From positions 10,210-74,209 of the forward strand of contig JAFTAM010000096.1 in the NCBI GenBank assembly GCA_017458675.1: DNA of 64,000 nt, in the 5' to 3' direction. The stretch comes from a bacterium (GTDB lineage Bacteria > Vulcanimicrobiota > Xenobia > Xenobiales > Xenobiaceae). Positions 522 to 55,516 of this stretch are shown here, piece after piece; position 1 is the stretch's first letter; each line of letters opens with the position of its first letter. Under the pieces are notes generated by a model that was not told the DNA's origin, searched no databases, and saw nothing but the letters and a program-made list of their open reading frames with translations. Made by a program: the position numbers and the translations under genes.

Positions 522-1514
522 TTATCTGAATTTAATTTTCCCTATTTTTACCAAACCTCGCAGACTGTTGCGGATTTGCTGCTGGGCCTGCTTTATTTCA
601 TCCCAGGCTACATGTCCTAAGCCTTCGACGTCGTCTCTCAGGGCTCTGGCCACGTCCGGCGAAAGGAAGCGATAGACCCGCTCCGCCAGGCCTCGGTCCG
701 CCCCCTTCAAGGCCAGGACCAGATCTCTGAAGTCGGTTATGCGCAGAAGCTGCTGCATTGAGTTATCGTCAATATTGTTGATATCTTCGAAATCGCAGAG
801 TTTAGTTTTAAAATCGTCGACTATCTGGGAGTTTCTCTCGTTTAATCCTACTAAAATTCTTTCTTCCGTGCTGCGGTCGGCCTGGTTGAGTATCTCCAGC
901 AGAGCCTCCTTGCCGTCGCTGTGAGCGTAGGGACCGTCCTCTAAGGCCTGATGGAGACGCGATTCCAGAACTTTTTCAAGCTCCTCCAAAACCTCCGGAT
1001 TAACAGGGCCCAGCTCGGCCAGGCGTTTGGCTACTTCCGGCTGTACCTGCGGAGTCAGATCGCTTAACACCGCCGAGGCTTGATTGGGATGCAGGAAGGA
1101 AAGAATGACCGCCAGAGTCTGAGGATGTTCCTTGCGCATGAGCTGCAGGAGCTGGCGGGGATCGACCCTGCGCAGAAAATCCAAGGGACGGTTTCCTGTT
1201 GTGGGAGCAATGGCGGTTTGATCGAAGCCGCCGCCGAACTGAGGAGGACCGAATCCGGCCGGAGCCAGGCCGCCTCCCGGCTTGAAGCCGAAGCCGGCAA
1301 AGGGATTGCCTGCGCTGCCCCCGTCCTGGTCTAAAAATTCCTGGATTACCTGGGCTCTGGTTTCCGGAGATATCTGCGGCAGCTTTGATATTTCGGCGGT
1401 AATAGACTGAACCTCTTCGGGAGGCAGCTCTTTAAATATTTCGGCAGAGGCTTCCGGAGGAAGAGACATCAATAAAATAGCCGTCTTTTGTTTGGGCGGT
1501 AAATTTACGGACAT
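522..1514 (-). CDS. fliG: Flagellar motor switch protein FliG
   Basis: 330 aa. Typical FliG N-terminus (KTAILLMSLPPEASAEIFKELPPEEV) and C-terminal torque helix region. GGAG RBS upstream. Last gene of the flgB-fliG operon. Confidence 0.9.
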   Translation of the reverse strand: MSVNLPPKQKTAILLMSLPPEASAEIFKELPPEEVQSITAEISKLPQISPETRAQVIQEFLDQDGGSAGNPFAGFGFKPGGGLAPAGFGPPQFGGGFDQTAIAPTTGNRPLDFLRRVDPRQLLQLMRKEHPQTLAVILSFLHPNQASAVLSDLTPQVQPEVAKRLAELGPVNPEVLEELEKVLESRLHQALEDGPYAHSDGKEALLEILNQADRSTEERILVGLNERNSQIVDDFKTKLCDFEDINNIDDNSMQQLLRITDFRDLVLALKGADRGLAERVYRFLSPDVARALRDDVEGLGHVAWDEIKQAQQQIRNSLRGLVKIGKIKFR

Positions 1515-1743
1515 GTTATCTCCTTGTAATTATCGGTTCGGCGGGTCGCAAGATAGAATATTCTTATCCACTTCGACCGGAATAATCTTTATCTTGTTTG
1601 AGGAGCGTTTTTTTGCCGTTTTTCATATTATTGCAGGCTGCCTTGAGATAGGCTGCGCCGTACGGAAAAATAAAAAGAGCGCGTATGTCCATTTTGCAAT
1701 GCACATACCGCTCTTCTGCGGATAGCTTTGCGGAGGTTTAAGG

Positions 1744-3534
1744 TCAGCGCTGCTGACTTCCGCTCAGCCAGGTGCTCTTGAGCTTTTCAGCCAGCTCGTT
1801 GGGACGTTCCTTCGCCAGTTTTTCCAATTGATCGGAGGTATTGACTCTGGTTTCACCCATGGCTTTGGACTTGCCGGATTTCTCGTTTAAGAGGTCGGCG
1901 ATATCGGAGGAAGCTGTTCCGGTAGAGGAACCGAGTATGAGCTGAGATTGATTTTCTTTGACCTGACGCTGCTTGGAAGCGTAGACGGCTACGATGGCCA
2001 TGAGCAGCACCGCCGGTACGAAGAGGACCGCAGCCAGAGTAGAAGTGCTTATGCCGGTGGAGGGGGGAGCGACGGGAACGTTTCCGCTGGCCATAGCGCC
2101 TGCCATTTCGCTGTAAACGCCGTCTAAGGAGGCGGTCGCGAAAGGCACGCTCTTAACGGTCACGGAGTCGCCGCGGCTTTCGTTGATGCCTATGGCGTCT
2201 TTGACCAGATCGGCAATGGCCGCCTGCTGCTCGGGCTTGAGGTTGTCAACGGCTACGGATACTGTTAAGCGCTGAATGCGGGGAGAAGTATCGATGTTTT
2301 TGGAAATGGTCTTGTTGACTTCGTATTTTTCGGATTCCTCTGATTTTACGTAGGTACCTTTTTTGTCGTTTTTGTTGTCAACCTGAACAAAACCGTCGTC
2401 TTCGGCCGCGTCTTCGGAAGTGAGCTGAATGAAGCCGTCGGCCTGCGCTTCAAACTCTGAGGACATCTGTACGGAACCGTCGTCGCCGGAACCGGAGGAG
2501 GACGAGGAGCCTCCGCCCTTGTCATATCTCTCTATGCGTTTCTGGCCGCCGACCTTGACGCGTCCGCTGTCGTCGGGACCGCCTACGACCTCGCGCTGAA
2601 CTTCGTTCTGGGAGAAGTCAACCTCAGCCGTGACCTGAGCGGCGAATTTCTGAGCGCCCAGCACCTTAGCCAGCTGCTGCTCAACCTTGTCTTTTAAATG
2701 TTTTTCCAGGGCCAGCTTGTATTCGAGCTGGTTGTTGGGGGCCATGCCCATGCTGCCGGCGCCGTCCAGGGCTAAATTGGCGGTTAAATCTTTGCCGTTG
2801 GTATCTACGATCTTGACGTTTTCTGCTTTGAGGTTTGGAACAGAGTAAGCCACTAAGTTGACGATACCGGTAATCTGATCGCGGGTGATCTGCTTGCCGG
2901 GCTGCAGTTTCAGCATGACTGCGGCTTTGGCGCTTTCCTGACCGTTGTCAAAGAGCGTCTTTTCGGGGAGTCCTAACTTTACATAAGCGTCGGCTACGCC
3001 GTCCATCTGGCGCATGGATTCGGTGAGTTCGCCTTCCAGAACCTGTTTGCGAATATCGTCCTTTTCTTTCTCGGACATGGTATTGATGCCGCTGGAATCG
3101 GGTTTGGTGGCGGCGGTCATGACCGAATGGCGGGGCAGACCGTTGGAGGCCAGACGAGCCTGGGCGCTGACTTTGTCTTTAGGAGCGACTAAGAGATTGT
3201 CATTGGTCTGAGCTACGCTGTGAGGGATATTCCATTCCTGCAGCTTCATGGAGATGTCTTTGACGTCGTCTTCGCTGAGTTTCGTCGCGTACAGCTCTAC
3301 GGGCTTGTTGGCGGAGCTGTAAAGGTTTAGAGCTACAAAACCGACTACGGCAAGGATCACTACAACTATAAGCGCGATCCTCACTTTGGGATTCATACCT
3401 GACCATATCGCACCAATTTTGCCCATTGGGCTGCTGTTTGCAGCTGCGCCTCCCGGGGGTTTGCCCAGGGGACCTCTTCCTGTGGCGAGCGGACCGCTGC
3501 CGGTCCGCATGCCCGTTTGGATACCGGTGGCCAT
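1744..3534 (-). CDS. fliF: Flagellar M-ring protein FliF (start may be internal, near 3426)
   Basis: 596 aa. N-terminal TM helix (IALIVVVILAVVGFVALNLY), a large periplasmic domain and a C-terminal TM (LAAVLFVPAVLLMAIVAVY), which is the FliF architecture. Lies between fliE and fliG. Confidence 0.88.
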   Translation of the reverse strand: MATGIQTGMRTGSGPLATGRGPLGKPPGGAAANSSPMGKIGAIWSGMNPKVRIALIVVVILAVVGFVALNLYSSANKPVELYATKLSEDDVKDISMKLQEWNIPHSVAQTNDNLLVAPKDKVSAQARLASNGLPRHSVMTAATKPDSSGINTMSEKEKDDIRKQVLEGELTESMRQMDGVADAYVKLGLPEKTLFDNGQESAKAAVMLKLQPGKQITRDQITGIVNLVAYSVPNLKAENVKIVDTNGKDLTANLALDGAGSMGMAPNNQLEYKLALEKHLKDKVEQQLAKVLGAQKFAAQVTAEVDFSQNEVQREVVGGPDDSGRVKVGGQKRIERYDKGGGSSSSSGSGDDGSVQMSSEFEAQADGFIQLTSEDAAEDDGFVQVDNKNDKKGTYVKSEESEKYEVNKTISKNIDTSPRIQRLTVSVAVDNLKPEQQAAIADLVKDAIGINESRGDSVTVKSVPFATASLDGVYSEMAGAMASGNVPVAPPSTGISTSTLAAVLFVPAVLLMAIVAVYASKQRQVKENQSQLILGSSTGTASSDIADLLNEKSGKSKAMGETRVNTSDQLEKLAKERPNELAEKLKSTWLSGSQQR

Positions 3535-3851
3535 AGTTTTGTTCTCCTTCCGATGGAAATTTAAACTGGAATTATGACATTTCTTCCGTCCGGGGATTTG
3601 CTGTTACAGATCGCAGACGGAAAGACTGCTGTATTAGCTGTTAAAATGAGAATTCCCATTTATACAGGTTTATTTCCTGCTAAAATTATAGCATATGCAT
3701 AAATTATTCTGACTCTGTTAAACTAAAAAATATTGATAAAAAAATAAAATATCCCTTCTGTGCATCGGCATAAAAGGGATATTTTGTTTACTGCGTTTAT
3801 TTGCAGATTGCTATATTATATAGCGGAACTATACAGCGCAGCGCCTGAGAA

Positions 3852-4214
3852 TTATAACTGCATCTGGAACAGCGTGGTAGCTGAAGAGCAGAGCTTGGAA
3901 GCGATCTGCGTGGTGAGGTGCAGCATAACTTCGGACTTGGCTCCGGCAACGCTCATATCGTGAAGGTTGTTGAGGCTTCCGTCGAGCAGCTTGTCAGTGC
4001 AGGCCTTGGCGTTGTCCATGGTGGTGCTGACGTTGGAAAGAGCGTCACCGAGCATGCTGGAGAAGGACTTGGCATCCGCTTCGGTGGGGGCGTTGATGGA
4101 ACCGATAGAACCAATGCTTGAAGTTCCGGAAATCGAACTGACGTTCATGGGAGCGTTCATCTGAGAAGCCTGGTTTAAATTGCCGATTCCCTGAATAGAA
4201 AATGTACTCTGCAT
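3852..4214 (-). CDS. fliE: Flagellar hook-basal body complex protein FliE
   Basis: 120 aa Ser-rich protein with a conserved C-terminal FliE-like segment, positioned between flgC and fliF. Confidence 0.75.
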   Translation of the reverse strand: MQSTFSIQGIGNLNQASQMNAPMNVSSISGTSSIGSIGSINAPTEADAKSFSSMLGDALSNVSTTMDNAKACTDKLLDGSLNNLHDMSVAGAKSEVMLHLTTQIASKLCSSATTLFQMQL

Positions 4215-4266
4215 AAGCGACCTCCTGAGGCCGTATTAAAGACCTCTGAAAATTAGCGGCGTAAAA

Positions 4267-4722
4267 CTATTTGCCGATCTCGAGAGCTTTGGAAGCCATG
4301 GACTTGGAAGCTTCCAAAATGGTGGCGTTGGCTTCGAAGGCGCGGCTGGCCATCATCATGTTGGTCATTTCAGAAATGACGTTGACATTGGGCATAGCCA
4401 CATAACCCTTGTGCTCGCCCTCTTTCTGGGCTTTGGGGTTGCTGGGGTCGTATACCCAGCGGAAGTCGGAATTGTCAGCCTGTACGCTGGAAACCTCGAC
4501 GCCCTGAGTCTGGGGAGCATCATCGAAAGAGCAGGCCTGGAACTCTTCGTTCCAATCGCCGACCTGTTTCTGGGTTACTACGGCAACCATGCGGCGGAAA
4601 GGAGTGCCGTCAGCAGTTTCGGTGGTATTAACGTTGGCGATGTTAGCAGCGGTAACATCCATCATTTTGCGCTGAGCGGTCATACCGCTGGCAGCGACGT
4701 CAAAACTGTTAAAGAAATTCAT
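4267..4722 (-). CDS. flgC: Flagellar basal-body rod protein FlgC
   Basis: 151 aa. N-terminal rod motif (SGMTAQRKMMDVTAANIANVNT) and a conserved C-terminus (ISEMTNMMMASRAFEANATIL). Confidence 0.9.
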   Translation of the reverse strand: MNFFNSFDVAASGMTAQRKMMDVTAANIANVNTTETADGTPFRRMVAVVTQKQVGDWNEEFQACSFDDAPQTQGVEVSSVQADNSDFRWVYDPSNPKAQKEGEHKGYVAMPNVNVISEMTNMMMASRAFEANATILEASKSMASKALEIGK

Positions 4723-4757
4723 TATTTATTTCCTCCTGCCTTATTTATGGCGCTGAC

Positions 4758-5171
4758 TTAGCGGCCGGCGTTGTCTATGACATACTTCAGGGTGCCGTAC
4801 ACGCCCGAGATTTTGCTCGCTAAAGCGTTGTACATGATCTGGTTCTTGGCAAGGTTGCTCATCTCATTGTTGAGGTCCACGGGGCCGTCCTGAGACTCTA
4901 CGGTAGCATGCAAAGACTCGGCAGTATAGCCGCCGCTGGCGTTAAGGCGGAATTCAGGGTCTACAGCGGTGCTGGCGACATTGAAACCGTCGTCATCGCC
5001 GTTTTCCAAAGCCATAACCTCTTTGAGGTGGCTTTCGAAAACTACTCTTTGAGCGTCGTATCCCTCAGTATTGACATTGGCTATATTGCTGGAGATGACC
5101 TGCTGGCGCAAAGAGGCGGCATCCAGAGCTTTTTCAAGTAAAGTGGTGTCAACTAACTTCACTGGATTCAT
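4758..5171 (-). CDS. flgB: Flagellar basal-body rod protein FlgB
   Basis: 137 aa. SSNIANVNTEGY motif and a C-terminal LSNLAKNQIMYNALA, typical of FlgB. First gene of the operon. Confidence 0.88.
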   Translation of the reverse strand: MNPVKLVDTTLLEKALDAASLRQQVISSNIANVNTEGYDAQRVVFESHLKEVMALENGDDDGFNVASTAVDPEFRLNASGGYTAESLHATVESQDGPVDLNNEMSNLAKNQIMYNALASKISGVYGTLKYVIDNAGR

Positions 5172-5657
5172 CAGTTTATTCTCCCTCCTGGTCCGGTAAT
5201 CCGCCTTAGCGGAAGGTCGGAAATCCTTATCTTTTTCTCGCTAACATATTATTATGGAGCTATTGAATATTATTTGTGATATTGTTAACAAATTGTAAGC
5301 AAGCGTTCCCATAATCTTAGATTGTGAATCGATCGTCTGATTCTCGACGATTGGGAAATTATGCACATTTATCGGGAATCCGACAGCGCAGAAGAGCATC
5401 GGCGGCATGAGCGCATTCGGTTCCGCCGCAGACTGAATTCCTTCTCTGAAGTTTAAGCGCATTCGGAAACCGGTCCTCAGACGCAGAGCTTAAAGACTAT
5501 ATAATTATATACGGATTTCCGCTGCTGAGGCAAGAGTCTGCGCGCCTGTTTTGAAAGAGCCGGCTTCATTTTGCATGAATGAGCGCAGCTCCGATACCGC
5601 AGAGCAGTTCTGTTTAGGCCGCGCCTTTCCGATAAGCGGGCGCGGCTCTGATTCTGC

Positions 5658-5685
5658 TTGACAGCCGTCAGTTTAATAATATTAA
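5658..5685 (+). promoter_or_regulatory. Candidate sigma70-type promoter: TTGACA, 16-nt spacer, TATTAA
   Basis: TTGACA at 5658-5663 and TATTAA at 5680-5685, about 135 nt upstream of the 5823 CDS. Preceded by a GC hairpin (GGCCGCGCC..GGCGCGGC) at about 5620-5650. Confidence 0.35.
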
Positions 5686-5822
5686 AAGATTACGGCCGCT
5701 TACTTTCAGCCGAGACGCAGTCCGCAATTTTTTTTGCTTTAGGCAGAGCCGTTTTCTGCAGGCTTTATGTTTGAGATCTGTAAAATGCTGTTCTGTTAAT
5801 AATGGCGTAAGGATAAAAGATT

Positions 5823-7670
5823 TTGAAAGCTATTGATAGGGCGGAGCCTTCGTTTCTGCCGAATTTTAAAGAATTTTTGGGAGCTTCGGCCTTTTTTCTG
5901 CCGCTGATTTTTCTGGTTGTTTTTCCTTCCTTTGTCAGCGCCGGAGTACAGTCCGGAGGCGAAGAAACGGTGTTTTCCTCCTACTTTCTGGGCAGCGATC
6001 GATCTGACCTTTGGAAGCATACCTGGGATGCCTGGTGGGTAAATTCCGAGCTGCAGCAGGGCAGGTTTCCGCTGCGCTCTTCGCTGCAGAATTTTCCCGA
6101 GGGCGGCAAGCTGTATGTCATCGATCCCTTTAATTCGCTGGTATCCGGACTCATGTCCAGGCTGATCGGTCTGACGGCGGCTTTTAATCTGACTCACCTG
6201 CTGCAGCTTTATCTGTCCTGCATGGGGGCCTGGCTGCTGGGCTGCTGCATTTGCCGAGATAAGGCGGCGGCGCTGGTGACCGGCGTTATTTACGGAATTT
6301 CGCCGTTTATTCTGACCAGCGGCGTTTGCAGCGGCATCTGCGAAACTACCAATCTGGAGTGGCTGCCGCTGAGCCTTTTGGGGCTTATCGTCTGTTTCCG
6401 CACCGAACGTCCCGCCGCAGCGGTAATTTTTACCTCGCTGAGTCTTTGCCTGGGAGCGCTGGGCTGCTGGTATTATTCCATGACCTGCATTATCTGCGTG
6501 GTTATTCTCTGCCTTTGGGCGGCTTTTGTCAAAAGGCTTCCCATACTGGGCTGCGAGGAGAAGCAGAAGCTTAATTGGTTCTGTCCGCTGATCGCCTGTT
6601 TGCTATCTTTAATAATGATCTCTCCCTGCGCTCTGGCATTTGCCGACAGCTTAAAAGGAGAGGGGTCGCTTTTGGCTCAGATTGACATTACCGAAAGGCA
6701 GCAGGCCGGTAATTTGGAGTTTTTCCATAAGGAAGGCCATTTTAAAAACAACGCGCCTTTGCTGGGCTATTTTGTACCGGGAAAGGATAATCTCTCAATC
6801 GCCGACGACGTCGACCTGCGCATGAAGACCGTCTATATAGGCGCCGCCGCGCTGCTGCTGGCCGTTCTGGGCTTTTGCGGAGGAGGCATGGCCTGTCGGT
6901 TCTGGGCTCTTCTGGGAGGCGTGCTGCTTTTGATGTCAACGGGGCCTTATTTCACCTACTGGGGAGAGGATAGCCTTTCAGTTCCCGTAAATCCGATATA
7001 TTGGGCGGCTTATAATTTTGTGCCAGGCTTTAAGATGGCGGTAATTACCGACAGGCTTTCCATCGCCGTGCAGCTGAGCGCTGCGGTGCTGGCTGGAATA
7101 GGCGTTCATTTGCTGAGAGCCGGACTGAAGAAATACTTTATATATGCTGTCTGTCTGCTGGCCCTGACGGTTGTGGCCGAAGTCGTCTTTGTTTCGCCCG
7201 TTCCCTTCCCGCTGCCTGCGGCGGCTTCGGCTATGCCGCGTCAAGCTGAGGCTCTGGCGAAAGAGGAGGGGATGGGCGGCGTTATTCAGCTACCCTTAAA
7301 CAGAATCGGCGGGCAGATGCAGCCGGGCGAATATTACTATTGGCAGACTTTCCACCGGAAGCCGATGCCTATTTCTTTGACGACCCGCTTCCCGAGAAAG
7401 CTCTTTAAAAATATGCTTATGGATACTCTCTATTTATGCGAGGATTCCAGTTACGGCGAGCCTCTGCTTTCCGAATATCTGTTTGAAGGGGCGGAACAGC
7501 TCCGCAAGTCGGGCTTTGAATGGATCTGTGTAAACGGCAATCTAATGAACGGCGTCACTCTGCGCAAGGTAAGATCGGTCCTGGATCAGATATTTCCGAA
7601 TAAGCAAGTTTTTCCTGACGGAGCCGTTCTCTATAAAATTGAAGTTAAAAAAGAGAAGGGAGCCGAATAG
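5823..7670 (+). CDS. Polytopic membrane protein (at least 12 predicted TM helices plus a C-terminal soluble domain), GT-C-like putative glycosyltransferase, function unknown
   Basis: 615 aa with many hydrophobic helices. The first periplasmic loop carries an acidic/aromatic motif (SDRSDLWKHTWDAWW). Paralogue of the 8415-10061 product. Confidence 0.6.
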   Translation: MKAIDRAEPSFLPNFKEFLGASAFFLPLIFLVVFPSFVSAGVQSGGEETVFSSYFLGSDRSDLWKHTWDAWWVNSELQQGRFPLRSSLQNFPEGGKLYVIDPFNSLVSGLMSRLIGLTAAFNLTHLLQLYLSCMGAWLLGCCICRDKAAALVTGVIYGISPFILTSGVCSGICETTNLEWLPLSLLGLIVCFRTERPAAAVIFTSLSLCLGALGCWYYSMTCIICVVILCLWAAFVKRLPILGCEEKQKLNWFCPLIACLLSLIMISPCALAFADSLKGEGSLLAQIDITERQQAGNLEFFHKEGHFKNNAPLLGYFVPGKDNLSIADDVDLRMKTVYIGAAALLLAVLGFCGGGMACRFWALLGGVLLLMSTGPYFTYWGEDSLSVPVNPIYWAAYNFVPGFKMAVITDRLSIAVQLSAAVLAGIGVHLLRAGLKKYFIYAVCLLALTVVAEVVFVSPVPFPLPAAASAMPRQAEALAKEEGMGGVIQLPLNRIGGQMQPGEYYYWQTFHRKPMPISLTTRFPRKLFKNMLMDTLYLCEDSSYGEPLLSEYLFEGAEQLRKSGFEWICVNGNLMNGVTLRKVRSVLDQIFPNKQVFPDGAVLYKIEVKKEKGAE

Positions 7671-7686
7671 CCGTTAGGATCTGATT

Positions 7687-8166
7687 TTATTCCGGAGATT
7701 CTTCATAGCTCTCGTTTTCAGCATTCTCGGTTTGGTACTGCGAAAGCGCGTCTAAAAAATCGCCTACGATTTCCTGGTATTTCTCGTTGCCGGCTATAGT
7801 GTTGACGATTTTATTCTGCATCTGCAGATATTCCGGCCGGGAGGTCGTTTTTTCACCAAAGACCTGCTTGAGAGCGGAATTGACCAGGGTAGAAAGCGAG
7901 TCGTAAAAGTAGCTGGGGGAGTTGGGATTTAATTTAGACAGCTCTTCTGAAGCATTGGCCAGGAAAAGCTGCTGAGGGCTTAAAGCCTGCTCTCCCTGAG
8001 CCTGAGCCGATTCCTGAGCTTCAGCAGCCTCCTGGGAGAGAAAGACGTCGTCGGCGCCTTCTGCGGCGGTTACCGCCGAAGTCTTTGAAGGGTGGGAAGT
8101 CTTTTTGGCCATGCCCAATATGCCGCTGCAGAGCGAAGCCAGGTTTGCAGTCTGTAAAGGATCCAA
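7687..8166 (-). CDS. Hypothetical acidic protein
   Basis: 159 aa ORF on the opposite strand between the two membrane-protein genes. No recognisable domain. Confidence 0.45.
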   Translation of the reverse strand: MDPLQTANLASLCSGILGMAKKTSHPSKTSAVTAAEGADDVFLSQEAAEAQESAQAQGEQALSPQQLFLANASEELSKLNPNSPSYFYDSLSTLVNSALKQVFGEKTTSRPEYLQMQNKIVNTIAGNEKYQEIVGDFLDALSQYQTENAENESYEESPE

Positions 8167-8414
8167 AAAATAAAACCTCGTGAAAAAATGTAAATCGGTA
8201 TTTTTATTGGCTCCGTCGGCGTTATAAATATATTTTATGCCGCTTCAGGGAGTCAGAAGCATATTCGACGCTGTCTATAGGGTTGTTATCAATATAAATT
8301 TGAGGAAAGTAAATAAGCAAAGAAAATCTTTCCCGTCAATTTAACGTAAAAAACTGTTATAATTGAGCTGGCTGCGGCGCCGCGGAGCGGCGGAGCTCTG
8401 CCGAACTTAGAAAC

Positions 8415-10061
8415 ATGAGCAAACTGAGATACTGGATAAATTCTGCGGAAATTAACGCGGAAAAGAGCTTTGAACCTGGGATAACCCACCGAAAGCGCAT
8501 GAGCTTCGGAGGATGGTCTGCGGCCTTATGCTTTTTTCTGATATGCATAATCTGCTTCTTCCTGCTGCAGAACAGTTTTAATCCCTTTAATAATTTCCCC
8601 GGCGGTTATGAAGCGGAAGCGGTCTACTGGCAGCAGCATAAAATTGTTCAAGACTGGCAGAATTTTGATTTCAAGGCTCTGCTATCTGCGGTCTTAAGAC
8701 AGGATATTCCTGATTTCAACGGGATTGGCTTTATGCAGATAATTTGCGCCCTGCCTGTTCTTTTGCTGGGCTATTCCTGGGGCAACCGCCTTTTGTTCGC
8801 GGCGGTGCTGCTTTTAAACGGCATAAGCGCTTTTAAGCTTTCGAGCTGCTTCTGCAGGAATAAGACTGCCGTCGGCTTCGGCGGTCTGCTTTTATTCTTA
8901 AATCCGGCTGCCTTGAGAGCCCTTTCGGCTCTGGACTACGGCGCCGCCTTTATGGCGCCTTTATTTTTTACGCTGGCGTTCTGGATCGCTTTTTTATACG
9001 GCAAGAAAAATAAGTATTTTTACGCTTTCCTCGTTTCCTGGCTGCTGTGCTGCTTCTGCTGCGCGCAATACGCGTTGTCCGCGGCGCTTTACGCGGGATT
9101 GCTGCTTTATTTATATCATAAAAACGAACCTGACGGTCTGCCTGCGGGATTTCCCAGGCAGATTTGGCCGGCTGCGGCGGGAACGGTTTTTATCGCCGTC
9201 GGCCTTTGCTCTCCTTTAGGCGGAGAGTTGGCTGATTTTGAATTGGCATATATATATGCGTTTTTATTTTTTGCGTCGCTTTTCATAGCGCTCCATTTCG
9301 GCAAGGCTGAGATTTCCTTATTTTCTCAGCGCATTATCGCCTTCGCCGTCCTTCTGCTTCCCTTGACGCTTATAAACAGCGGATCGGCGGCTGCAGCGGC
9401 TTTGGGATTTATTCTGCCGGCTCTGGCCCTGTCCTGGACGGATGTTTTTTCGCATCAGCTGGACCGGAAGCATTACGGCTCGGCCTTTTTATGTTCCTGC
9501 GCTCTCGGAGCGGCCATATATTTCCTGTCATATTTCAACGCCGCGCCGCTGTATGCTTTTAACTCAGAAATTGCGCCCTTTTACAGTCTGCTGAAAGAGG
9601 CCGGGCAGGATAGGAATGTTGCGGCGGCGGAACTGCCTTTCTGTTCTCTGCCGATATACCGCTTCGCCCAGTTTCAGCACGGCTGCCGTCTGCAGGATTT
9701 CAGCGGCAGGGAGGGTTTCAGCCATTTTGCTTATGTGCTCGGTCATCTGGATAGGGAGAATCTGCAGAATGACAGGATTTATCTGGAGCTGGCTGAGGAT
9801 CCGGAGCTGATAAAGCGCGAGCTTAAGGCTATGAAAGCCGGGGGCTTTACCTATATTATTCTTCATGAGCGCGCCTTTAATATTATAAATCCGAAAAAAG
9901 GATCTCTTTTGTATGATAAGGGCTTCGCTGCTCTTTACAGGCTTCTGGGAAAAGCGGCGGCTGAAGACTATGAGCCTGTTTCCCGATGGCGCTGGGGACG
10001 CGGCGGTAAGGATACTCAGGCTCTGAGATGGTACAGAATGTCGGTATTTTACATAAAATAG
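8415..10061 (+). CDS. Polytopic membrane protein, paralogue of 5823-7670 (GT-C-like putative glycosyltransferase)
   Basis: 548 aa with the same architecture and a similar first-loop motif (AVYWQQHKIVQDWQ versus DLWKHTWDAWW). Confidence 0.6.
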   Translation: MSKLRYWINSAEINAEKSFEPGITHRKRMSFGGWSAALCFFLICIICFFLLQNSFNPFNNFPGGYEAEAVYWQQHKIVQDWQNFDFKALLSAVLRQDIPDFNGIGFMQIICALPVLLLGYSWGNRLLFAAVLLLNGISAFKLSSCFCRNKTAVGFGGLLLFLNPAALRALSALDYGAAFMAPLFFTLAFWIAFLYGKKNKYFYAFLVSWLLCCFCCAQYALSAALYAGLLLYLYHKNEPDGLPAGFPRQIWPAAAGTVFIAVGLCSPLGGELADFELAYIYAFLFFASLFIALHFGKAEISLFSQRIIAFAVLLLPLTLINSGSAAAAALGFILPALALSWTDVFSHQLDRKHYGSAFLCSCALGAAIYFLSYFNAAPLYAFNSEIAPFYSLLKEAGQDRNVAAAELPFCSLPIYRFAQFQHGCRLQDFSGREGFSHFAYVLGHLDRENLQNDRIYLELAEDPELIKRELKAMKAGGFTYIILHERAFNIINPKKGSLLYDKGFAALYRLLGKAAAEDYEPVSRWRWGRGGKDTQALRWYRMSVFYIK

Positions 10062-10090
10062 CCGCTAAGTTTTAATTTAGCGGTTTAAAA
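10062..10090 (+). terminator. Rho-independent terminator-like hairpin
   Basis: CCGCTAA-GTTTTAA-TTAGCGG followed by a T-rich tract, immediately after the stop of the 8415-10061 CDS. Confidence 0.4.
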
Positions 10091-10128
10091 TAAAGGATTA
10101 TTATTTTTATTTAAATATTTGAAAGCCT

Positions 10129-11532
10129 ATGTTGATTCCAGATAAGCGCACGGCAGATGAAGTTTCAGTAAAGGGAAGAGGCTCGGAGACCTTTTTTTGG
10201 AAGACCCTTGCCGCAGTTTCAGCGGCCTCTGCGCTGGTCGCCGCCGGGCTGGCCTGGTCTATGTGCCGGGATGTGACGCCCTTGGCGGCTATGGCCCGCT
10301 ATGAAAATGAGCCGAAGCTGAACTTAGGGACTGCCGCAGAGGACAATTTTAAAAAAATTACTTTGCTTCAGATTATCGACGGCATGAATCTGCTGAACGG
10401 AAATCCCGAGATAATGCTCAGCGCCGATCAGTCCAGGCAGATCGCGGCGACTCTGCCCTTGGTGAATCAGATAATTGACGACGGCATGGCCGGCGACAAT
10501 ACTGTATTAAAGGACGGCTCGGATAAATATCTGGACAATGTTCCTTTTATGGTTAAAAACAGTCTGTGGAATACTCTCAATGACAGGCAGCGCCTGGAAA
10601 TTGTCAGGCTGCTGGAGGCGGGAAGGCTTAACAGCACCGCTCAGGAGGTTTTAGGCATTCTGCCGGATTTTTACAAGAGAATTTGTCTGGATGTGGGCTT
10701 AACCGACGAATTCAGCGAAAACGGACTCTCGCCTATGCGCAAGCGTCTGGATAAGCTGCGTGTGATCCATTGGATTATCGGCATCATTCTTTTGGGCAAG
10801 GAAGGCAGGTATGCGGTTACGGCCGACCAGGCCAGAGTTTTAAAGCCTATGATCGCTCCTTTGATGCTGGAAGTAAACAAGGCTCCGGGAGTTCGTCCTT
10901 CGACCTATTTCCCTATTTTGGAATCTCAGGTCTGCAGCGTGCTCACTGACGAACAGCAGACGTATATTCTGCAGCTTCTGTGGAACAACGCAATTTTTGA
11001 TAAGATTTTCAGTCCGGTATTTGTTTTCAACCAGTTTGACAGCTTTTTAAACAGCCTGGTTTACGGATCCTATTACGAGGTCCCCACCGTCGACAAGCTG
11101 CTGCAGGGCGAAGACACCGACGAGGACGACATCGTGACGGTATTGTTCCCGGTGGCGATCATCGATACCAGTCTGTACCAGATGCTGTGCGGCATTATGT
11201 TTGTTCTGGAAAATGACGACGAACTGAGGTTTACCGACGAACAGGTGAACGATTTAATTTTAATCCGCGATGAGATTGAGGAATGCTTCCGTGAGGATCA
11301 CGGCCGCGACCGCAACTTGTATATAAGAAAGGTCGAAGCTAAGGTTCTGAGCTTCCTCAACGACGCACAGGTACAGAAGATCAAGGACGTTTTGTCTGTT
11401 ACTTATGTTCCGGAAAAGCTGGCCCGAAATGAATTTGAAAAATTTTTGTCGGCCAGGATGGATCGCAGACGGTACGTTTACGAGGGCGAAAATGAAGAGG
11501 TTCTTAAACTTTGCAGCCACGGCAGGAAATAA
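10129..11532 (+). CDS. Membrane-anchored protein with repeated L-T/S-x-(D/E)-Q motifs (CpxP/Spy LTXXQ-like repeats)
   Basis: 467 aa with an N-terminal TM helix. Multiple motifs: LSADQSRQI, VTADQARVL, VLTDEQQTYI, RFTDEQVNDL. Confidence 0.6.
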   Translation: MLIPDKRTADEVSVKGRGSETFFWKTLAAVSAASALVAAGLAWSMCRDVTPLAAMARYENEPKLNLGTAAEDNFKKITLLQIIDGMNLLNGNPEIMLSADQSRQIAATLPLVNQIIDDGMAGDNTVLKDGSDKYLDNVPFMVKNSLWNTLNDRQRLEIVRLLEAGRLNSTAQEVLGILPDFYKRICLDVGLTDEFSENGLSPMRKRLDKLRVIHWIIGIILLGKEGRYAVTADQARVLKPMIAPLMLEVNKAPGVRPSTYFPILESQVCSVLTDEQQTYILQLLWNNAIFDKIFSPVFVFNQFDSFLNSLVYGSYYEVPTVDKLLQGEDTDEDDIVTVLFPVAIIDTSLYQMLCGIMFVLENDDELRFTDEQVNDLILIRDEIEECFREDHGRDRNLYIRKVEAKVLSFLNDAQVQKIKDVLSVTYVPEKLARNEFEKFLSARMDRRRYVYEGENEEVLKLCSHGRK

Positions 11533-11570
11533 GGCTCGGGGTTATTGACGGCAGAATCTGAGGTGGATTT

Positions 11571-12974
11571 ATGAGCGGCGACAGCAGGACAGAATTGAAT
11601 AAAAACGGAGACGACGTCAAATCCGGAGTCTCCTGCGGCAAGCCGGCCGAGGCCTTGACTTCGGCTGAAGCGGAGGTTTCAGAGGCTGCGGCCGACGCAG
11701 ACGGAAAAGGCGAGGCCGCCGATACGGTTAAAGCGTCGGCGGAGCTTCCTGCCGAAGCCGAACCATCCGAGCCGCCGGCGGATGCGGACGAAGAAGCCGG
11801 CAATGAGGAAAAAGTCAAAGCGGAAAACGCGGCGGAGGCTGCCGGCGGCGCTGAAAAAAGCGGCCGAACGGATGTCGGAGGCGAACCTGCTGCGAATTTG
11901 CCGACAGAGTCCGACGCTCAGACGAAAAAGGAAAAGTTTTGGAATAAGAGCAACATCGCCGGCCTGATTTTTATTCTGGCTCTGATAGGCTTTAATTTGA
12001 TAATATACAGCGGCGCTTTCAACAGCAGCGGAGATTCGCCGGAAAATATACCGGCGGCGAACGGAGAAGCCGGCCCTCCCGGCCCTATGAATCAGGGACC
12101 GCCGCCTCTTTCCGACGGACTGCCTCACGATGACGACGGCAAGCCTCATCCTCCTGCCCCGCCTCCGCCTCCGGGGCAGAACGGAAAAGCCGATACAAAA
12201 TGGACGGACAGCTACATTAAACCTAAAAATGGCAATAACAGAGGCTTTCTGTCCGGGCCGAGCGTTCTTAAATGCATCATATATCTGGCTAATACGGATA
12301 ACCGCAGCTTAACTCTGACGCAGGATCAGCGCCGCAGATGCCGGGAGGAATTAAAAGAACTGATTGCCGAGCGCACCGAATATAACAGGCTTGCCGCAGA
12401 GCTGGCTTCTTATTTTACTCCTCAGCAGCTTGACTGGTATAATAAGCACCGCGGCGATCCGGAGGTCCCCGAGGATAAGAAAAAGGGCGGAGCTTTCAAT
12501 TATTTAATAGACGCTTCTTTGGAAATTCTCAAGGACAGAGCGGGCAGGAACAAAGCGACAGATACCGTTTACAAACACAGTTTTATTGATACTATGCTCA
12601 ATGATATTGTGGCCTGCATTATTAAATGCGAAAAGGAAGAGGATTTGAAGCTTACGCCGGGGCAGGCGGCGGCCATGCTGCCTATTATGCCTCAGCTTGT
12701 TAAGCTGGAAAAGAAAATGGACGAGCGCGTGCGCTTCAAGCTCTGCATGGTATTCAGCGATGAGCAGGCCGAATGGCTGTCCAAACACATGAATGAAATC
12801 AATATCGACAACAATATGGTGATGCTTTTGTATGCCGATTTGACGGTGAGCAGAGACGGAAACGGAGAACAGGCCGCCCGGCCGTCCGAAGCTGCTGAAA
12901 ACAGCGGCGGACAGCCCTCTCGGGAAGGTACGGAAAAACCTGCGCCGGCGCCCGCCGAAAATAAGAAAAGATAG
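11571..12974 (+). CDS. Paralogous LTXXQ-like repeat protein with an Ala/Glu/Pro-rich N-terminus and an internal TM helix
   Basis: 467 aa. Motifs LTLTQDQRRR, FTPQQLDWY, KLTPGQAAAMLPIMPQL and VFSDEQAEWL align with those of the upstream gene. Contains a poly-Pro tract (PPAPPPPPG). Confidence 0.6.
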   Translation: MSGDSRTELNKNGDDVKSGVSCGKPAEALTSAEAEVSEAAADADGKGEAADTVKASAELPAEAEPSEPPADADEEAGNEEKVKAENAAEAAGGAEKSGRTDVGGEPAANLPTESDAQTKKEKFWNKSNIAGLIFILALIGFNLIIYSGAFNSSGDSPENIPAANGEAGPPGPMNQGPPPLSDGLPHDDDGKPHPPAPPPPPGQNGKADTKWTDSYIKPKNGNNRGFLSGPSVLKCIIYLANTDNRSLTLTQDQRRRCREELKELIAERTEYNRLAAELASYFTPQQLDWYNKHRGDPEVPEDKKKGGAFNYLIDASLEILKDRAGRNKATDTVYKHSFIDTMLNDIVACIIKCEKEEDLKLTPGQAAAMLPIMPQLVKLEKKMDERVRFKLCMVFSDEQAEWLSKHMNEINIDNNMVMLLYADLTVSRDGNGEQAARPSEAAENSGGQPSREGTEKPAPAPAENKKR

Positions 12975-12989
12975 AGAAGGCAGCGATTT

Positions 12990-13457
12990 ATGGATAAAAT
13001 AAATAAGGGAACCAAAAACTGCGGATATGCGGCGGAAGAGGCCGGGCAGATCAGGGCTTATGTCCCCGAGCTTGAGCCGGGCAGCGAAGAAATAACCATA
13101 ACCAAATTAGTCAACGGCCGGCTGGCAGCAGGAGGCTGTCTGCGGCCGGGAAGCCGTGAGAGCGTAGCCTACAGGCTGGCGGAAATAATGGTCAGCGCCA
13201 AAAATTTATATACCGAGGTTCTGCCCGGGTTTATAGAGGGCGCCGAAACCGGCGGTGAGGAAGCGGAGGAGTACGCATCTGAAAGCGAGCGCGTTTTCGA
13301 CGATTTAGCCGGAGTGCGCATGGCCTTTATTCACATGCGCGATCTGATCGCCGACTTTGAGGATGCTTTTATGGACGCCATCGACGATATGCATAGCGAT
13401 GATAATGAGGATGAGGACGGGGAGACCTTTGCCCCTGAGAATTTTTTTGAGGATTAG
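12990..13457 (+). CDS. Hypothetical acidic protein
   Basis: 155 aa ORF with a very acidic C-terminus, in codirectional tandem with its neighbours. Confidence 0.45.
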   Translation: MDKINKGTKNCGYAAEEAGQIRAYVPELEPGSEEITITKLVNGRLAAGGCLRPGSRESVAYRLAEIMVSAKNLYTEVLPGFIEGAETGGEEAEEYASESERVFDDLAGVRMAFIHMRDLIADFEDAFMDAIDDMHSDDNEDEDGETFAPENFFED

Positions 13458-13469
13458 TCTTTTCGATCT

Positions 13470-15440
13470 TTGCAGAGGCGTATGGGGAGGAGGGCGGCTG
13501 TGAATTGCATGCTTGATTTTTATGAATCGGAAGAACTGTTCCGCCCGCTCAACGAGCAATATGCTCTGAATAACGGCGAGGCTGACGACGCTGATATAAA
13601 AAAAATTATTTATGATATTTTAAAGCGATTTTACGGTTACAGATCCTTCAGAGGAATGCAGGAGGAGATTATTCTGCATCTTATTAAGGGCGGAGACGCA
13701 ACGGTTCTGATGCCTACCGGCGGCGGAAAATCGCTTTGCTATCAGATCCCTTCTATCGTGCGCCCGGGGATGGGACTGGTCATTTCTCCGCTGATAGCTC
13801 TGATGCAGGACCAGGTGACCTCATTGATAAGCGGCGGCATCAGGGCGGCCTTTTTGAATTCGTCGCTGACTCCGCAGGAAATTCGCCGGGTCTATGCTCA
13901 AATTTACGGGGGAAATCTGGATATATTATATATCTCGCCTGAGCGGGCCGTAATGGACGGCTTTATGGATAGGCTCAGGGAAATTAAAATATCTTTGATC
14001 GCCGTAGACGAGGCTCACTGCATTTCCCAATGGGGGCATGATTTCCGTCCCGAATATACGCAGCTTTCCTCTTTGCGCGAGGCCTTCAGGGACGCGCCCT
14101 GGATCGCTCTGACCGCCACCGCCGACGAGGTTACCCGCCGCGATATCGCAAAGCAGCTGCAGCTCGAGGAGGCGCGCTCCTTCATAACCAGCTTTGATCG
14201 TCCCAATATCTGCTATTACATAAAGCCGCAGAGTTCGTCCCCCCGAGAGATACGTCAGGATTTTCTGCGCTTTCTTAAAGAAAAGCATCAGGGCGACGCC
14301 GGGATTGTGTACTGCATGACCAGGCGGCAGGTGGAGGAGACGGCGGAATGGCTATGTGAAGAGGGATATGAGGCCCTGCCTTACCATGCCGGTCTTCCGG
14401 ACAGCGTGCGGGCGGACAACCAGAACCGCTTCCTGCAGGAAGAGGGTATTATTATGGCCGCCACCGTGGCGTTCGGTATGGGAATTGATAAGCCGAATGT
14501 CCGTTTTGTAGCTCATTTAAGCCTGCCCGGGAGCGTAGAAGCCTACTATCAGGAGACCGGCAGGGCCGGACGCGACGGACTGCCCGCCTCGGCCTGGATG
14601 GAATATAACTTGAGGGATATCGCGATCCGGCAGTCGTTTATTGAAAACTCCGAATCCGACGAGCTGCATAAAAATATAGATAGGCGCAAGCTCAAAGCGC
14701 TGCTGGGGTTCTGCGAATCGGCGGAATGCCGCCGTCATGCCCTGCTGGCCTATTTCGGCGAGGACAGCCCCAGAGACTGCGGCGGCTGCGACAACTGCCT
14801 GGAGCCTCCCGAATCCGTGGACGGTCTGATTCTGGCGCAGAAGGCGCTCTCCTGCGTTTTCCGCACCGGTCAGGTCTTCGGCGTAAATTACCTCATTGAC
14901 GTTTTGCTGGGAAAGAAAAACGAAAAGATTATCAATAACCGTCACGATAAGCTGACGACTTACGGTATAGGCACGGAGCTTTCCCCTCATCAGTGGCAGT
15001 CGGTCTTCCGCCAGCTGACGGCGGGAGGATTTCTGAAGGTTGAGCTGGGTGAAAAGTACAGCAGTCTGAGGCTCAATGAAAACAGCTGGGATATTTTAAA
15101 GGGCAGGACCTCTTTGAAGCTCAGGCTGGAAAAGAAGAAAAGCAAGGTCAGAACCGTCAAAGCCGAAGCCGGGCTCAAAACCGCCTCCGGGGAAAATCGC
15201 GGACAGTCTATCGTTTTGTTTGGACTTCTGCGCCAAAAGAGATTGGAATTGGCGCGCCGCGAGGGTATGCCGCCTTATGTGATACTGCATGACCGCTCGC
15301 TTCTGGAAATTTCCAAGCAGCTTCCGCAGAGCCTGGATGAACTCCAGAATGTTTACGGTTTCGGCGAACTGAGGATAAAAAAATACGGTCAGGAATTTCT
15401 GACCGTAGTCAAGGATTATCTTAAAGATAATCCTCAATAG
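13470..15440 (+). CDS. recQ: ATP-dependent DNA helicase RecQ (true start possibly 13509)
   Basis: [14 protein letters not shown], Walker A (TGGGKSLCY), DEAH box ([15 protein letters not shown]), Zn-binding Cys cluster ([19 protein letters not shown]) and a C-terminal HRDC domain. Confidence 0.92.
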
Positions 15441-15451
15441 CGCGGCAGCCC

Positions 15452-16261
15452 TTAAGGCTGAGCTTCGCCTTCATGCTGATGTTCATGAGCCTCTGGCGCG
15501 GCCTCGGCTTTGCTTTCATGCTGATGTTCATGAGCTTCGGGCGCGGCTTCGCCTTCTTGCTGATGTTCATGAGCTTCGGGCTGAGCTTCGCCTTCATGCT
15601 GATGTTCATGAGCCTCTGACGCGGCTTCGCCTTCGCCGCTGTGCCGGGCATGTTCATGATGATGCTCCTGCTCGGCGTTTTTCAGCAGTTCGTCGCGGCG
15701 CTCCTTATTGCGTTTGCGCGGATCAAACATCTGTTCAGGGTGCTGTTTGTATTTTACGCAGCGGGCCCGGAAATTTTTGGCTATTGCGTTGTCCGGCTCG
15801 AGGATGAGCGCCTTGTCAATTTCTTCTATGGCGCCGTCGAAGTCTTTGCTGAAAAATAAGGATTCCGCCAGGATATAGTGGAGGTGGTAGGTGTCGGGAA
15901 TATTTTTGATGGCTTGGCGGTAGATCTCGATCTCTTTGTCGTATTCGCCTTCAAAGTAGGCGAAGGCGCCCAGCTCCAGGTAAGGGGTCAGCAGCTCGGG
16001 ATCCAGTTCCATGGCTTTGGCAAAGGACTGCTTGGCCGCGTCAATGCTGCCGGCTTCGATCATCTGATGGCCGAACTCGCACAGCTCAACGGCGTCGGCG
16101 ATCCTTTGCCGCTTTTCCAGGGCGGGAGGCAGAAGCCAGAGCATAACGGCTATGCCGACGACGGCCAGTACTGCTTCTATAATCTGAAGCTTCTTTTTTT
16201 TAGGGTCCTTGTAATAGGCGAGAAAAGGCATAAGGCGTTTTTCCTCAATAATTATTTGCAA
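15452..16261 (-). CDS. TPR-repeat protein with N-terminal TM helix and C-terminal His-rich tandem repeats (HEHQHEGEAxPEA)
   Basis: 269 aa. TPR-like helical repeats (AKQSFAKAMELDPELLTPYLELG, YRQAIKNIPDTYHLHYILAE). The C-terminal 60 aa are His/Glu-rich repeats. Confidence 0.7.
   Translation of the reverse strand: MQIIIEEKRLMPFLAYYKDPKKKKLQIIEAVLAVVGIAVMLWLLPPALEKRQRIADAVELCEFGHQMIEAGSIDAAKQSFAKAMELDPELLTPYLELGAFAYFEGEYDKEIEIYRQAIKNIPDTYHLHYILAESLFFSKDFDGAIEEIDKALILEPDNAIAKNFRARCVKYKQHPEQMFDPRKRNKERRDELLKNAEQEHHHEHARHSGEGEAASEAHEHQHEGEAQPEAHEHQQEGEAAPEAHEHQHESKAEAAPEAHEHQHEGEAQP
15461..15640. repeat. Imperfect 39-45 bp tandem repeats (4 copies) encoding the His-rich tail
   Basis: CATGCTGATGTTCATGAGC recurs at 15471, 15516, 15555 and 15594. 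Confidence 0.75.
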
Positions 16262-29241: not shown

Positions 29242-29319
29242 CGGAGCATAGCGCAGTCTGGATAGCGCACTTGCTTTGGGAGCAAGGGGTCGCCGGTTCA
29301 AATCCGGCTGCTCCGACCA
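29242..29319 (+). tRNA. tRNA-Pro (anticodon TGG)
   Basis: Hand-folded cloverleaf: acceptor CGGAGCA/TGCTCCG, D-stem GCGC, anticodon loop TTTGGGA, T-loop TTCAAAT, CCA encoded. Confidence 0.85.
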
Positions 29320-29337
29320 TTATTAGGGTAAGAACGA

Positions 29338-29413
<76 letters not shown>

Positions 29414-29422
29414 ATTTTATAC

Positions 29423-29500
29423 GGTGGATATAGCTCAGTTGGTTAGAGCGCCGGTCTGTGGAACCGGAGGTCGTGGGTTCGAGTCCCACTATCCACCCCA
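29423..29500 (+). tRNA. tRNA-His (anticodon GTG) with genomically encoded G-1
   Basis: Acceptor GTGGATA/TATCCAC preceded by G-1, anticodon loop CTGTGGA, T-loop TTCGAGT, CCA encoded. Confidence 0.85.
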
Positions 29501-29508
29501 TGATATCT

Positions 29509-29583
29509 GGGTCGCTAGCTCAGTGGAAGAGCATCTGACTTTTAATCCGAGGGTCACAGGTTCGAGTCCTGTGCGACCCACCA
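29509..29583 (+). tRNA. tRNA-Lys (anticodon TTT)
   Basis: Acceptor GGGTCGC/GCGACCC, anticodon loop CTTTTAA, T-loop TTCGAGT, CCA encoded. One mismatch in the anticodon stem. Confidence 0.8.
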
Positions 29584-55503: not shown

Positions 55504-55516
55504 GGTTGGTGAAATT

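Follow-up and report, generated by a model that had tools for sequence, protein, structure and literature searches.

A candidate extracytoplasmic glycosylation module next to the flagellar flgB-fliG genes in the bacterial class Xenobia

Glycosyltransferases of the GT-C fold that modify polymers and proteins of the cell envelope from the extracytoplasmic side have been the subject of much work in Firmicutes, Actinobacteria and Proteobacteria and, to our knowledge, of none in Vulcanimicrobiota. The closest described systems are those of the YfhO type, comprising B. subtilis YfhO, Listeria GtlB, streptococcal PgtC2 and S. mutans PgfM1/PgfM2: YfhO glycosylates lipoteichoic acid (PMC5836110), and in the Pgf cluster of S. 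mutans two YfhO-type GT-C enzymes are encoded beside their substrate proteins (PMC12041528). Here we describe a locus in a 64-kb stretch of bacterial DNA (contig JAFTAM010000096.1 of assembly GCA_017458675.1; "the window" denotes this whole stretch) in which genes for two polytopic membrane proteins, M1 and M2, and for two membrane-anchored helical-repeat proteins, A and B, lie next to the flagellar genes flgB-flgC-fliE-fliF-fliG. All coordinates of open reading frames are positions in the window, and M1, M2, A, B as well as the small genes s159 and s155 are working labels. As judged by protein matches, the closest named relatives of the host, an uncultured gut bacterium represented by a metagenome-assembled genome, are Candidatus Bruticola spp. 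(Vulcanimicrobiota, class Xenobia). In our judgement there is about an even chance that the locus constitutes a lineage-specific extracytoplasmic, i.e., cell-envelope, glycosylation module restricted to this class.

The likeness to the YfhO type lies in the polytopic GT-C fold predicted for M1, with its C-terminal outer domain, in a weak similarity of M1 to the Pfam family YfhO and, with respect to the Pgf cluster, in the presence of two paralogues in one cluster beside genes for membrane or secreted proteins (PMC12041528; PMC5836110). The locus differs in that M1 is sub-threshold for this family, in that M1 and M2 are shorter (548-615 amino acids (aa) vs a profile of 835 positions), in that the host phylum is diderm and does not belong to the Firmicutes, and in that no GT-A/GtrB or GtcA partner gene is found nearby. 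With the structurally solved GT-C enzymes STT3/AglB, AftD/AftA, ArnT, DPY19 and PMT, the M1 model has in common the overall fold, together with an invariant acidic residue where the helix of the first outer loop begins. However, identity to them is low (8-14%) with no sequence-level match in the PDB, and the C-terminal domain of M1 differs from theirs and is common to M2 only.

The membrane proteins M1 and M2

Transmembrane prediction shows both M1 and M2 to be polytopic, in line with the first-pass annotation of this DNA, which had described them as paralogous multi-pass proteins and had placed the four open reading frames correctly (Table 1). Pairwise BLAST was too weak to decide on paralogy, for M1 and M2 (E = 0.005 over 59 aa) as well as for A and B, and was replaced by profile comparison. 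The hhalign alignment of the M1 family (15 sequences) with the M2 family (6 sequences) reached a probability of 98.1% (E = 1.2e-13) over 400 columns and spans the membrane core together with the C-terminal soluble outer domain, and the two families have a number of invariant residues in common, namely N122/N124, G154/G156, P161/P164, 'QLPL'/'ELPF' ((E/Q)LP(F/L)), Q-P and Q..H. Because the profile alignment and the common invariant residues point to a signal that exceeds hydrophobic composition, M1 and M2 are ancient, distant paralogues. Only 8 relatives of M2 were found among 1.84 billion representative proteins.

M1 ends in an alpha/beta outer domain (approximately residues 460-605). An AlphaFold2 model of M1, based on the alignment of 15 sequences, has a predicted local distance difference test score (pLDDT) of 80.7 and a predicted template modelling score (pTM) of 0.85, and all 22 matches with E < 1e-3 that Foldseek returned for it from the PDB are GT-C enzymes. 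The structures matched are AglB (the best, E = 7e-8), AftD, STT3 in oligosaccharyltransferase (OST) complexes, DPY19, AftA, ArnT and Pmt4, with E-values of 7e-8 to 5e-4, probability 1.0, TM-scores of 0.4-0.5 on the query and 8-14% identity. The heteromers Pmt1-Pmt2 and EmbA-EmbB are both among the structural matches, and the first matches outside the GT-C class are transporters of the major facilitator superfamily (MFS) with probabilities below 0.2. By its predicted structure, M1 is a GT-C-fold glycosyltransferase, with the polytopic core of about 8-13 helices that is a criterion for this fold. The GT-C assignment made in the first-pass annotation is thereby upheld, for M1 by its model and for M2 by way of the profile alignment.

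At the sequence level the relationship to known families is faint. M1 reaches 18.3 bits against Pfam YfhO (PF09586; gathering cutoff 28.5), with profile positions 71-244 of 835 aligned to M1 residues 98-279; at E <= 0.01 this family is matched by three of the 15 M1-family members (best E = 1.7e-5), and a few members show weak matches to either YfhO or PTPS_related, both of which belong to Pfam's GT-C clan. Searches of PDB sequences with the M1 and M2 profiles gave matches at chance level only.

The aromatic and acidic first outer loop that had been noticed in both proteins is indeed conserved. In M1 it reads 'SDLWKHxWxAWW'; D62 and W68 are present in all 15 sequences, even in homologues of only 23-27% identity, and D62 directly precedes helix 63-78 of the model. 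The corresponding loop in M2 of the gut lineages, 'PGGxWxExxYWQ', has E68 and W72 invariant in six of six sequences. The M2 loop of the UBP9 lineage, 'EIEGWLWRYWWMKQL', resembles the M1 loop 'SDVWKHLWGAWWMGQEL', and its motif 'GGGEIEGWLWRYWWMKQL' (E-I-E-G-W-L-W) visibly matches the M1 loop motif. Thus both families possess, in the loop predicted to be the first extracytoplasmic one, the conserved acidic residue that is used as a criterion for GT-C enzymes.

The helical-repeat proteins A and B

A and B had been described as 467-aa paralogues, a claim of which one part stands and the other does not. BLAST between them gives E = 0.17 and does not establish paralogy. The hhalign comparison of the A family (13 sequences) with the B family (12 sequences) yields a probability of 95.5% (E = 1.6e-8), but over 181 columns that cover the repeat modules only. 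As the profiles indicate, A and B are not full-length paralogues but have in common a helical module of about 100 aa which bears the LTxxQ-type motifs, and the match is limited to the modules because A consists of three copies and B of two copies of the same module. In hhalign comparisons of alignment segments the internal repeats of A match each other at 92.7% (R1-R2) and 97.2% (R2-R3), those of B at 96.4% (R1-R2), and modules of A match modules of B at 84-91% (A_R3-B_R1 90.7%); UBP9 orthologues of A have a fourth copy. The equal length of the two proteins is a coincidence, since B orthologues, with their varying acidic N-terminal tail, measure 342-431 aa and A orthologues 465-600 aa.

Both proteins have one predicted N-terminal transmembrane segment, as the first-pass annotation had it (Table 1). 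For B, this segment and its flanking charges suggest a topology with the N-terminus inside and the C-terminus outside, and Bruticola orthologues of A have clearly basic N-terminal flanks. The transmembrane segment of B is followed by a spacer of 80-117 aa with 21-34% proline and about 10% serine plus threonine. In its layout of N-terminal anchor, proline-rich spacer and folded domain B may be likened to TonB; the C-terminal domain of B, however, is predicted to be all-helical and unrelated to that of TonB, and no ExbB/ExbD-like partners were found.

That A and B are studded with LTXXQ-type motifs holds true. Each module carries two (L/F/V)(T/S/N)xxQ motifs, and [LIVMF][TS]xxQ occurs five times in A vs 0.54 expected and five times in B vs 0.22 expected, a count reached in none of 2000 shuffles, with no enrichment in six control proteins of the window. 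The glutamines of the motifs are invariant across A and B orthologues and the motifs are spaced 33-53 residues apart. The structure predicted for B residues 205-440 consists of helices throughout (pLDDT 74.3, pTM 0.70), with the motifs at the starts of helices; Foldseek found nothing significant for it in the PDB (best E = 0.5, TM-scores below 0.3). Neither Pfam, NCBIfam nor a PDB sequence search gave a match for A, and the B profile matched PDB sequences at chance level only. No relative of the repeat domain is present in Pfam, NCBIfam or the PDB, and the domain seems to be a new one that is confined to Xenobia.

In turn, the kinship with the periplasmic chaperones CpxP and Spy that the motifs had seemed to announce was rejected. 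At E <= 1 there is no match to Pfam LTXXQ or a CpxP-like family in A, in B or in 13 A-family members, nor is there one in NCBIfam; profile comparison by hhalign with CpxP and Spy of E. coli yields probabilities of 0.6-2.8%; and CpxP, Spy and ZraP are absent among the 50 best PDB matches of the B domain model (pLDDT 74; best E = 0.5). S/T-x-x-E/Q is a generic and common helix N-cap. What A and B have in common with CpxP/Spy/ZraP is that they are predicted to be all-helical, are probably periplasmic and repeat L-T-x-x-Q at helix starts. They differ from these proteins in having no detectable sequence or fold relationship, in being membrane-anchored and not soluble, and in being three times their size, with tandem modules and another motif spacing. 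Membership of the CpxP/Spy family thus fails despite the presence of LTXXQ motifs, and the likeness is superficial, although A and B might still act in the way of chaperones.

Gene order in Xenobia and other features of the window

Loci were sampled from GTDB species genomes (11), from a JGI metagenome scan (7) and, in further number, by contig look-ups, and were annotated by BLAST with the window proteins; both scans returned loci from Xenobia only. M2-A-B, M1, s159 and flgB-fliG are found together in nine of the ten informative species loci, the adjacency to flgB being broken in one. In the layout common to Bruticola and UBP9, M2, A, B, s155 and recQ follow each other in one direction, M1 is placed head-to-head with M2 and points the opposite way, and s159, convergent with M1, is in turn head-to-head with flgB, from which flgC, fliE, fliF and fliG continue. 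In the window, M1 is divergent from flgB and faces it across a spacer of 651 bp, as had been described; here and in its closest relative, locus L025 (87% M1 identity), the block of M1 and s159 is inverted relative to all Bruticola and UBP9 genomes, the loci compared being L004, L005, L006, L008, L009 and L012-L014, so that the genes facing flgB and M2 are swapped. Since L025 has it too, the inversion is real and not an assembly error. Inverted repeats around the block amount to short matches of 73-86% complementarity, none of them at the block ends. Comparison of gene orders identifies the arrangement with M1/M2 and s159/flgB both head-to-head as the ancestral one, from which the window lineage departed by inverting the M1-s159 block.

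In one Bruticola species (loci L001 and L019), genes of an IS200/IS605 element and scpAB lie beside M1 in place of s159 and flgB, whereas M2-A-B-s155-recQ is kept. The element (TnpB/OrfB and a Y1 transposase, positions 12030-13554 of L001) sits exactly at the s159/flgB site of other Bruticola genomes and marks a rearrangement that split the GT-C cluster from the flagellar operon. On the other side, in the UBP9 loci L014 and L015, B is followed by ComB-like, MurB and Mrp genes with no s155 or recQ there. No informative locus, not even the one that has lost flgB, separates M2-A-B from M1. As this set persists through the IS break, the inversion and the changed recQ side, M2-A-B and M1 form the cohesive unit, with the flagellar operon and s159 as a conserved but separable neighbour. 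The adjacency to flgB, on which an envelope or flagellum-associated module had been proposed in the first place, is conserved within the class but lost in one species, and distant M1 homologues in other organisms have unrelated, non-flagellar neighbours; close M1 orthologues are found in Xenobia only. Between lineages, identity is 24-33% for A, B and M2, 44-50% for M1 and about 60% for RecQ. In the window, the successive genes of the run M2/A/B/s155/recQ lie 67, 38, 15 and 12 nt apart; their counterparts in relatives overlap or are spaced by 3-6 nt (M2/A overlap by 4 nt in L001; A/B are 3 nt apart in L004).

Table 1. Features of the locus and of its surroundings (positions in the 64-kb window)
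Feature	Position (nt)	Strand	Basis or remark
flgB-flgC-fliE-fliF-fliG (rod, MS-ring, rotor)	522..5171	-	ORFs; Pfam labels on L004 and L025 orthologues
fliG	522-1514	-	ORF list
fliF	1744-3534	-	ORF list
fliE	3852-4214	-	ORF list
flgC	4267-4722	-	ORF list
flgB	4758-5171	-	ORF list
flgB-M1 spacer	5172-5822		651 bp
M1-s159 block	5823-8166		inverted in the window and in L025
M1	5823-7670	+	615 aa; ORF list; identical to NCBI IJT93_05875
s159	7687-8166	-	ORF list; convergent with M1
M2	8415-10061	+	548 aa; ORF list; first gene of the M2-A-B-s155-recQ run
A	10129-11532	+	467 aa; ORF list
A anchor	10207-10263	+	residues 27-45; one N-terminal transmembrane segment predicted
A module R1	10324-10713	+	copy of the helical module (about 100-130 aa)
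A module R2	10714-11103	+	copy of the helical module (about 100-130 aa)
A module R3	11131-11493	+	copy of the helical module (about 100-130 aa)
B	11571-12974	+	467 aa; ORF list; identical to NCBI IJT93_05895
B acidic N-terminal tail		+	residues 1-120; variable
B anchor	11955-12011	+	residues 129-147; one transmembrane segment predicted
B proline-rich spacer	12015-12254	+	residues 149-228; composition
B module R1	12234-12575	+	helical module
B module R2	12576-12866	+	helical module
s155	12990-13457	+	155 aa; ORF list
recQ	13470-15440	+	TIGR01389, 756.6 bits vs cutoff 640.2
269-aa TPR protein gene	15452-16261	-	tetratricopeptide repeat (TPR) protein
Four tRNA genes	29242-29583	+	Pro-TGG, Arg-TCT, His-GTG, Lys-TTT
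Low-G+C island	53591-57334	+	restriction-modification genes
ORF, open reading frame.

The products of M1 and B are annotated by NCBI as hypothetical proteins that agree with the open reading frames used here at 100% identity and equal length. G+C content is even throughout the region of the locus (0.49-0.52). The spacer between flgB and M1 is unusually long and contains no noteworthy open reading frame; an Rfam scan found nothing in it, the four tRNA genes being the only matches in the window. Regulatory elements that were moved by the inversion might reside in this spacer. A generic promoter scan of the window gave 16 promoter-like sites vs 9.0 ± 2.8 in shuffles, and a terminator scan 19 terminator-like sites vs 15.6 ± 3.3.

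Of the two small genes, s159, which is divergent from flgB in relatives, codes for a small acidic soluble protein. Translation probably begins at the ATG in position 8112 (residue M19), and an alignment of 10 orthologues shows a conserved start 'M(Q/A)KK'. No Pfam or PDB match was found for it. A stretch 'DDVxLSxEAAxAQ' recalls FlgM, but hhalign against hand-entered FlgM sequences of B. subtilis and Salmonella was non-significant (E = 0.14 and 0.37) and this identification was rejected. The flagellum-linked gene of the neighbourhood may rather be s159. The very acidic soluble protein encoded by s155 has no family match in Pfam or NCBIfam scans; it is kept, at 48-52% identity, only in the gut lineages, the UBP9 loci having none. 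The gene run ends with recQ, which codes for a genuine RecQ helicase as judged by its family score.

The five flagellar proteins have 56-91% identity to those of Xenobia relatives. FliF has an extended Gly/Pro-rich N-terminal tail before its first membrane segment as well as a Gly/Ser/Asp-rich low-complexity insertion at about residues 340-400. Beyond recQ lies the gene of a TPR protein of 269 aa, which begins with a hydrophobic segment and ends in about five tandem copies of a His/Glu-rich repeat, 'EAHEHQHEGEAxP', that suggests metal binding; its similarity to the collar protein FlcA is weak and at the level of TPRs (E = 1.3e-4, 20.6 bits vs a cutoff of 300). Further away, the tRNA genes lie downstream of a gene for a RapA-like helicase, and an island of low G + C content (0.36-0.44 vs about 0.53 elsewhere) codes for two D12-class N6-adenine DNA methyltransferases together with an AlwI-family restriction endonuclease; it is probably a type IIS restriction-modification system gained by horizontal transfer.

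A proposed role in envelope glycosylation and its alternatives

If the locus is indeed a glycosylation module, it would act on the external side of the cytoplasmic membrane. M1 and M2 might there transfer a polyprenyl-phosphate-linked sugar onto an envelope polymer or onto extracytoplasmic proteins, by analogy with YfhO, ArnT and PMT, possibly as a heteromeric pair like Pmt1-Pmt2 and EmbA-EmbB. A and B would be single-anchor proteins with outward-facing tandem arrays (three and two copies, respectively) of the new helical module, which in B would be borne on the proline-rich spacer in the manner of TonB, and in relation to M2 and M1 they may be accessory scaffolds, subunits that bind the acceptor, or the substrates themselves. 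The position beside flgB would then be an inherited gene-order feature of the class. The one cultured member of the phylum has an outer membrane bearing lipopolysaccharide (PMC9758169); therefore a periplasm exists, in which the outward-facing domains would be located.

This reading draws on the GT-C fold of the M1 model, on the homology of M1 to M2, on the operon-like spacing and the cohesion of M2-A-B with M1, on their ancestral head-to-head layout, on the modules, motifs, charge bias and spacer of A and B, and on the precedent of the Pgf cluster. Several observations weigh against such a module. Neither a GT-A/GtrB-type polyprenyl-phosphate sugar synthase nor a GtrA-type flippase is found among the scanned genes of the window or in the flanks of the related loci; therefore the module is incomplete locally, and these genes may lie elsewhere in the genome. 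M1 remains below the YfhO gathering threshold, the M2 family has no Pfam match at all, and M2 is placed in the GT-C fold solely through its profile homology to M1. The orientation of A is ambiguous by charge bias in this genome. The spacer of B is rich in proline and not in serine or threonine, which makes B less plausible as a substrate like those of streptococci, and the adjacency to flgB is better kept than that to recQ, which would fit a flagellar role too. As a streptococcal-type Ser/Thr-rich substrate, B was rejected on the same composition.

With respect to the flagellum, the association is positional, and a flagellar role is possible. Flagellin is exported through the channel of the flagellum itself without reaching the external side of the cytoplasmic membrane, the site of GT-C action, and because of this export route its glycosylation by M1 or M2 is unlikely. 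A wider proposal holds that the module is flagellum-associated and co-inherited with flgB-fliG, M1 and M2 glycosylating those portions of the basal body or stator that lie in the periplasm, or A and B scaffolding the rod and MS-ring in a role that might be likened to that of spirochaete collar or Campylobacter disk proteins. We consider this rather unlikely, although s159 and flgB-fliG adjoin the module in nine of the ten informative species loci across the divergence given above for RecQ and M1, the flagellar side is kept where the recQ side changes, close orthologues of M1 are confined to Xenobia, the one cultured member of the phylum, which belongs to a different class, lacks flagella (PMC9758169) and a long proline-rich spacer in B would suit periplasmic reach. 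Set against this are the absence of any match to flagellar families of Pfam and NCBIfam for M1, M2, A, B and s159 (and likewise s155), the Bruticola species that has M2-A-B-M1 without adjoining s159/flgB, an ancestral M1 upstream region common to M2 and not to flgB, the non-flagellar neighbours of distant M1 homologues and the lack of a sigma-28-like motif (TAAA-N14-16-CCGATA) in the window. Quite improbable is the still more specific scenario of A and B as a new periplasmic family of tethered tandem CpxP-like two-motif modules which, together with a heteromeric GT-C pair, build or glycosylate a structure around the rod and MS-ring. If true, that machine would be a lineage-specific basal-body accessory system, the host being a flagellated diderm within Bacillati.

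It might also be argued that nothing but shared history keeps M1, M2, A and B adjacent, with unrelated functions and a gene order that has changed little within a small clade. The loci all belong to a single class, the sequences of A, B and M2 diverge rapidly, and the association of the four proteins is one that we infer, but a purely historical neighbourhood, to which we give only a small probability, sits poorly with the tight or overlapping arrangement of M2/A/B in three lineages, with the paralogues M1 and M2 being kept side by side, with a module common to A and B and found nowhere else, and with a set that stayed intact after an inversion and an IS-mediated break. Very unlikely, finally, is an explanation of A and B as tandem-array relatives of the CpxP/Spy/ZraP chaperones or stress sensors, i.e., as membrane-tethered holdases for envelope proteins that work independently of the GT-C enzymes. 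It can draw on the strong enrichment and invariance of the LTxxQ-type motifs, on there being two of them in each module, where helices begin in the model of B, and on the hhalign alignment in which both motifs of the first A module (R1) fall opposite those of CpxP; yet this alignment is weak (E = 0.029, 1.7% probability), the spacing of 33-53 residues contrasts with about 70 residues between the two motifs of E. coli CpxP as aligned, and the Pfam, profile and structure comparisons as well as the generic nature of the N-cap speak against it, as outlined in the section on A and B.

The locus is thus a clear candidate for envelope glycosylation in gut Xenobia, a class with no cultured representative in the literature cited here, and it raises the question of a GT-C pair working with dedicated helical partners. 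Should the flagellar link prove true, it would represent a new kind of basal-body accessory; otherwise it would be an ordinary lineage-specific envelope operon.

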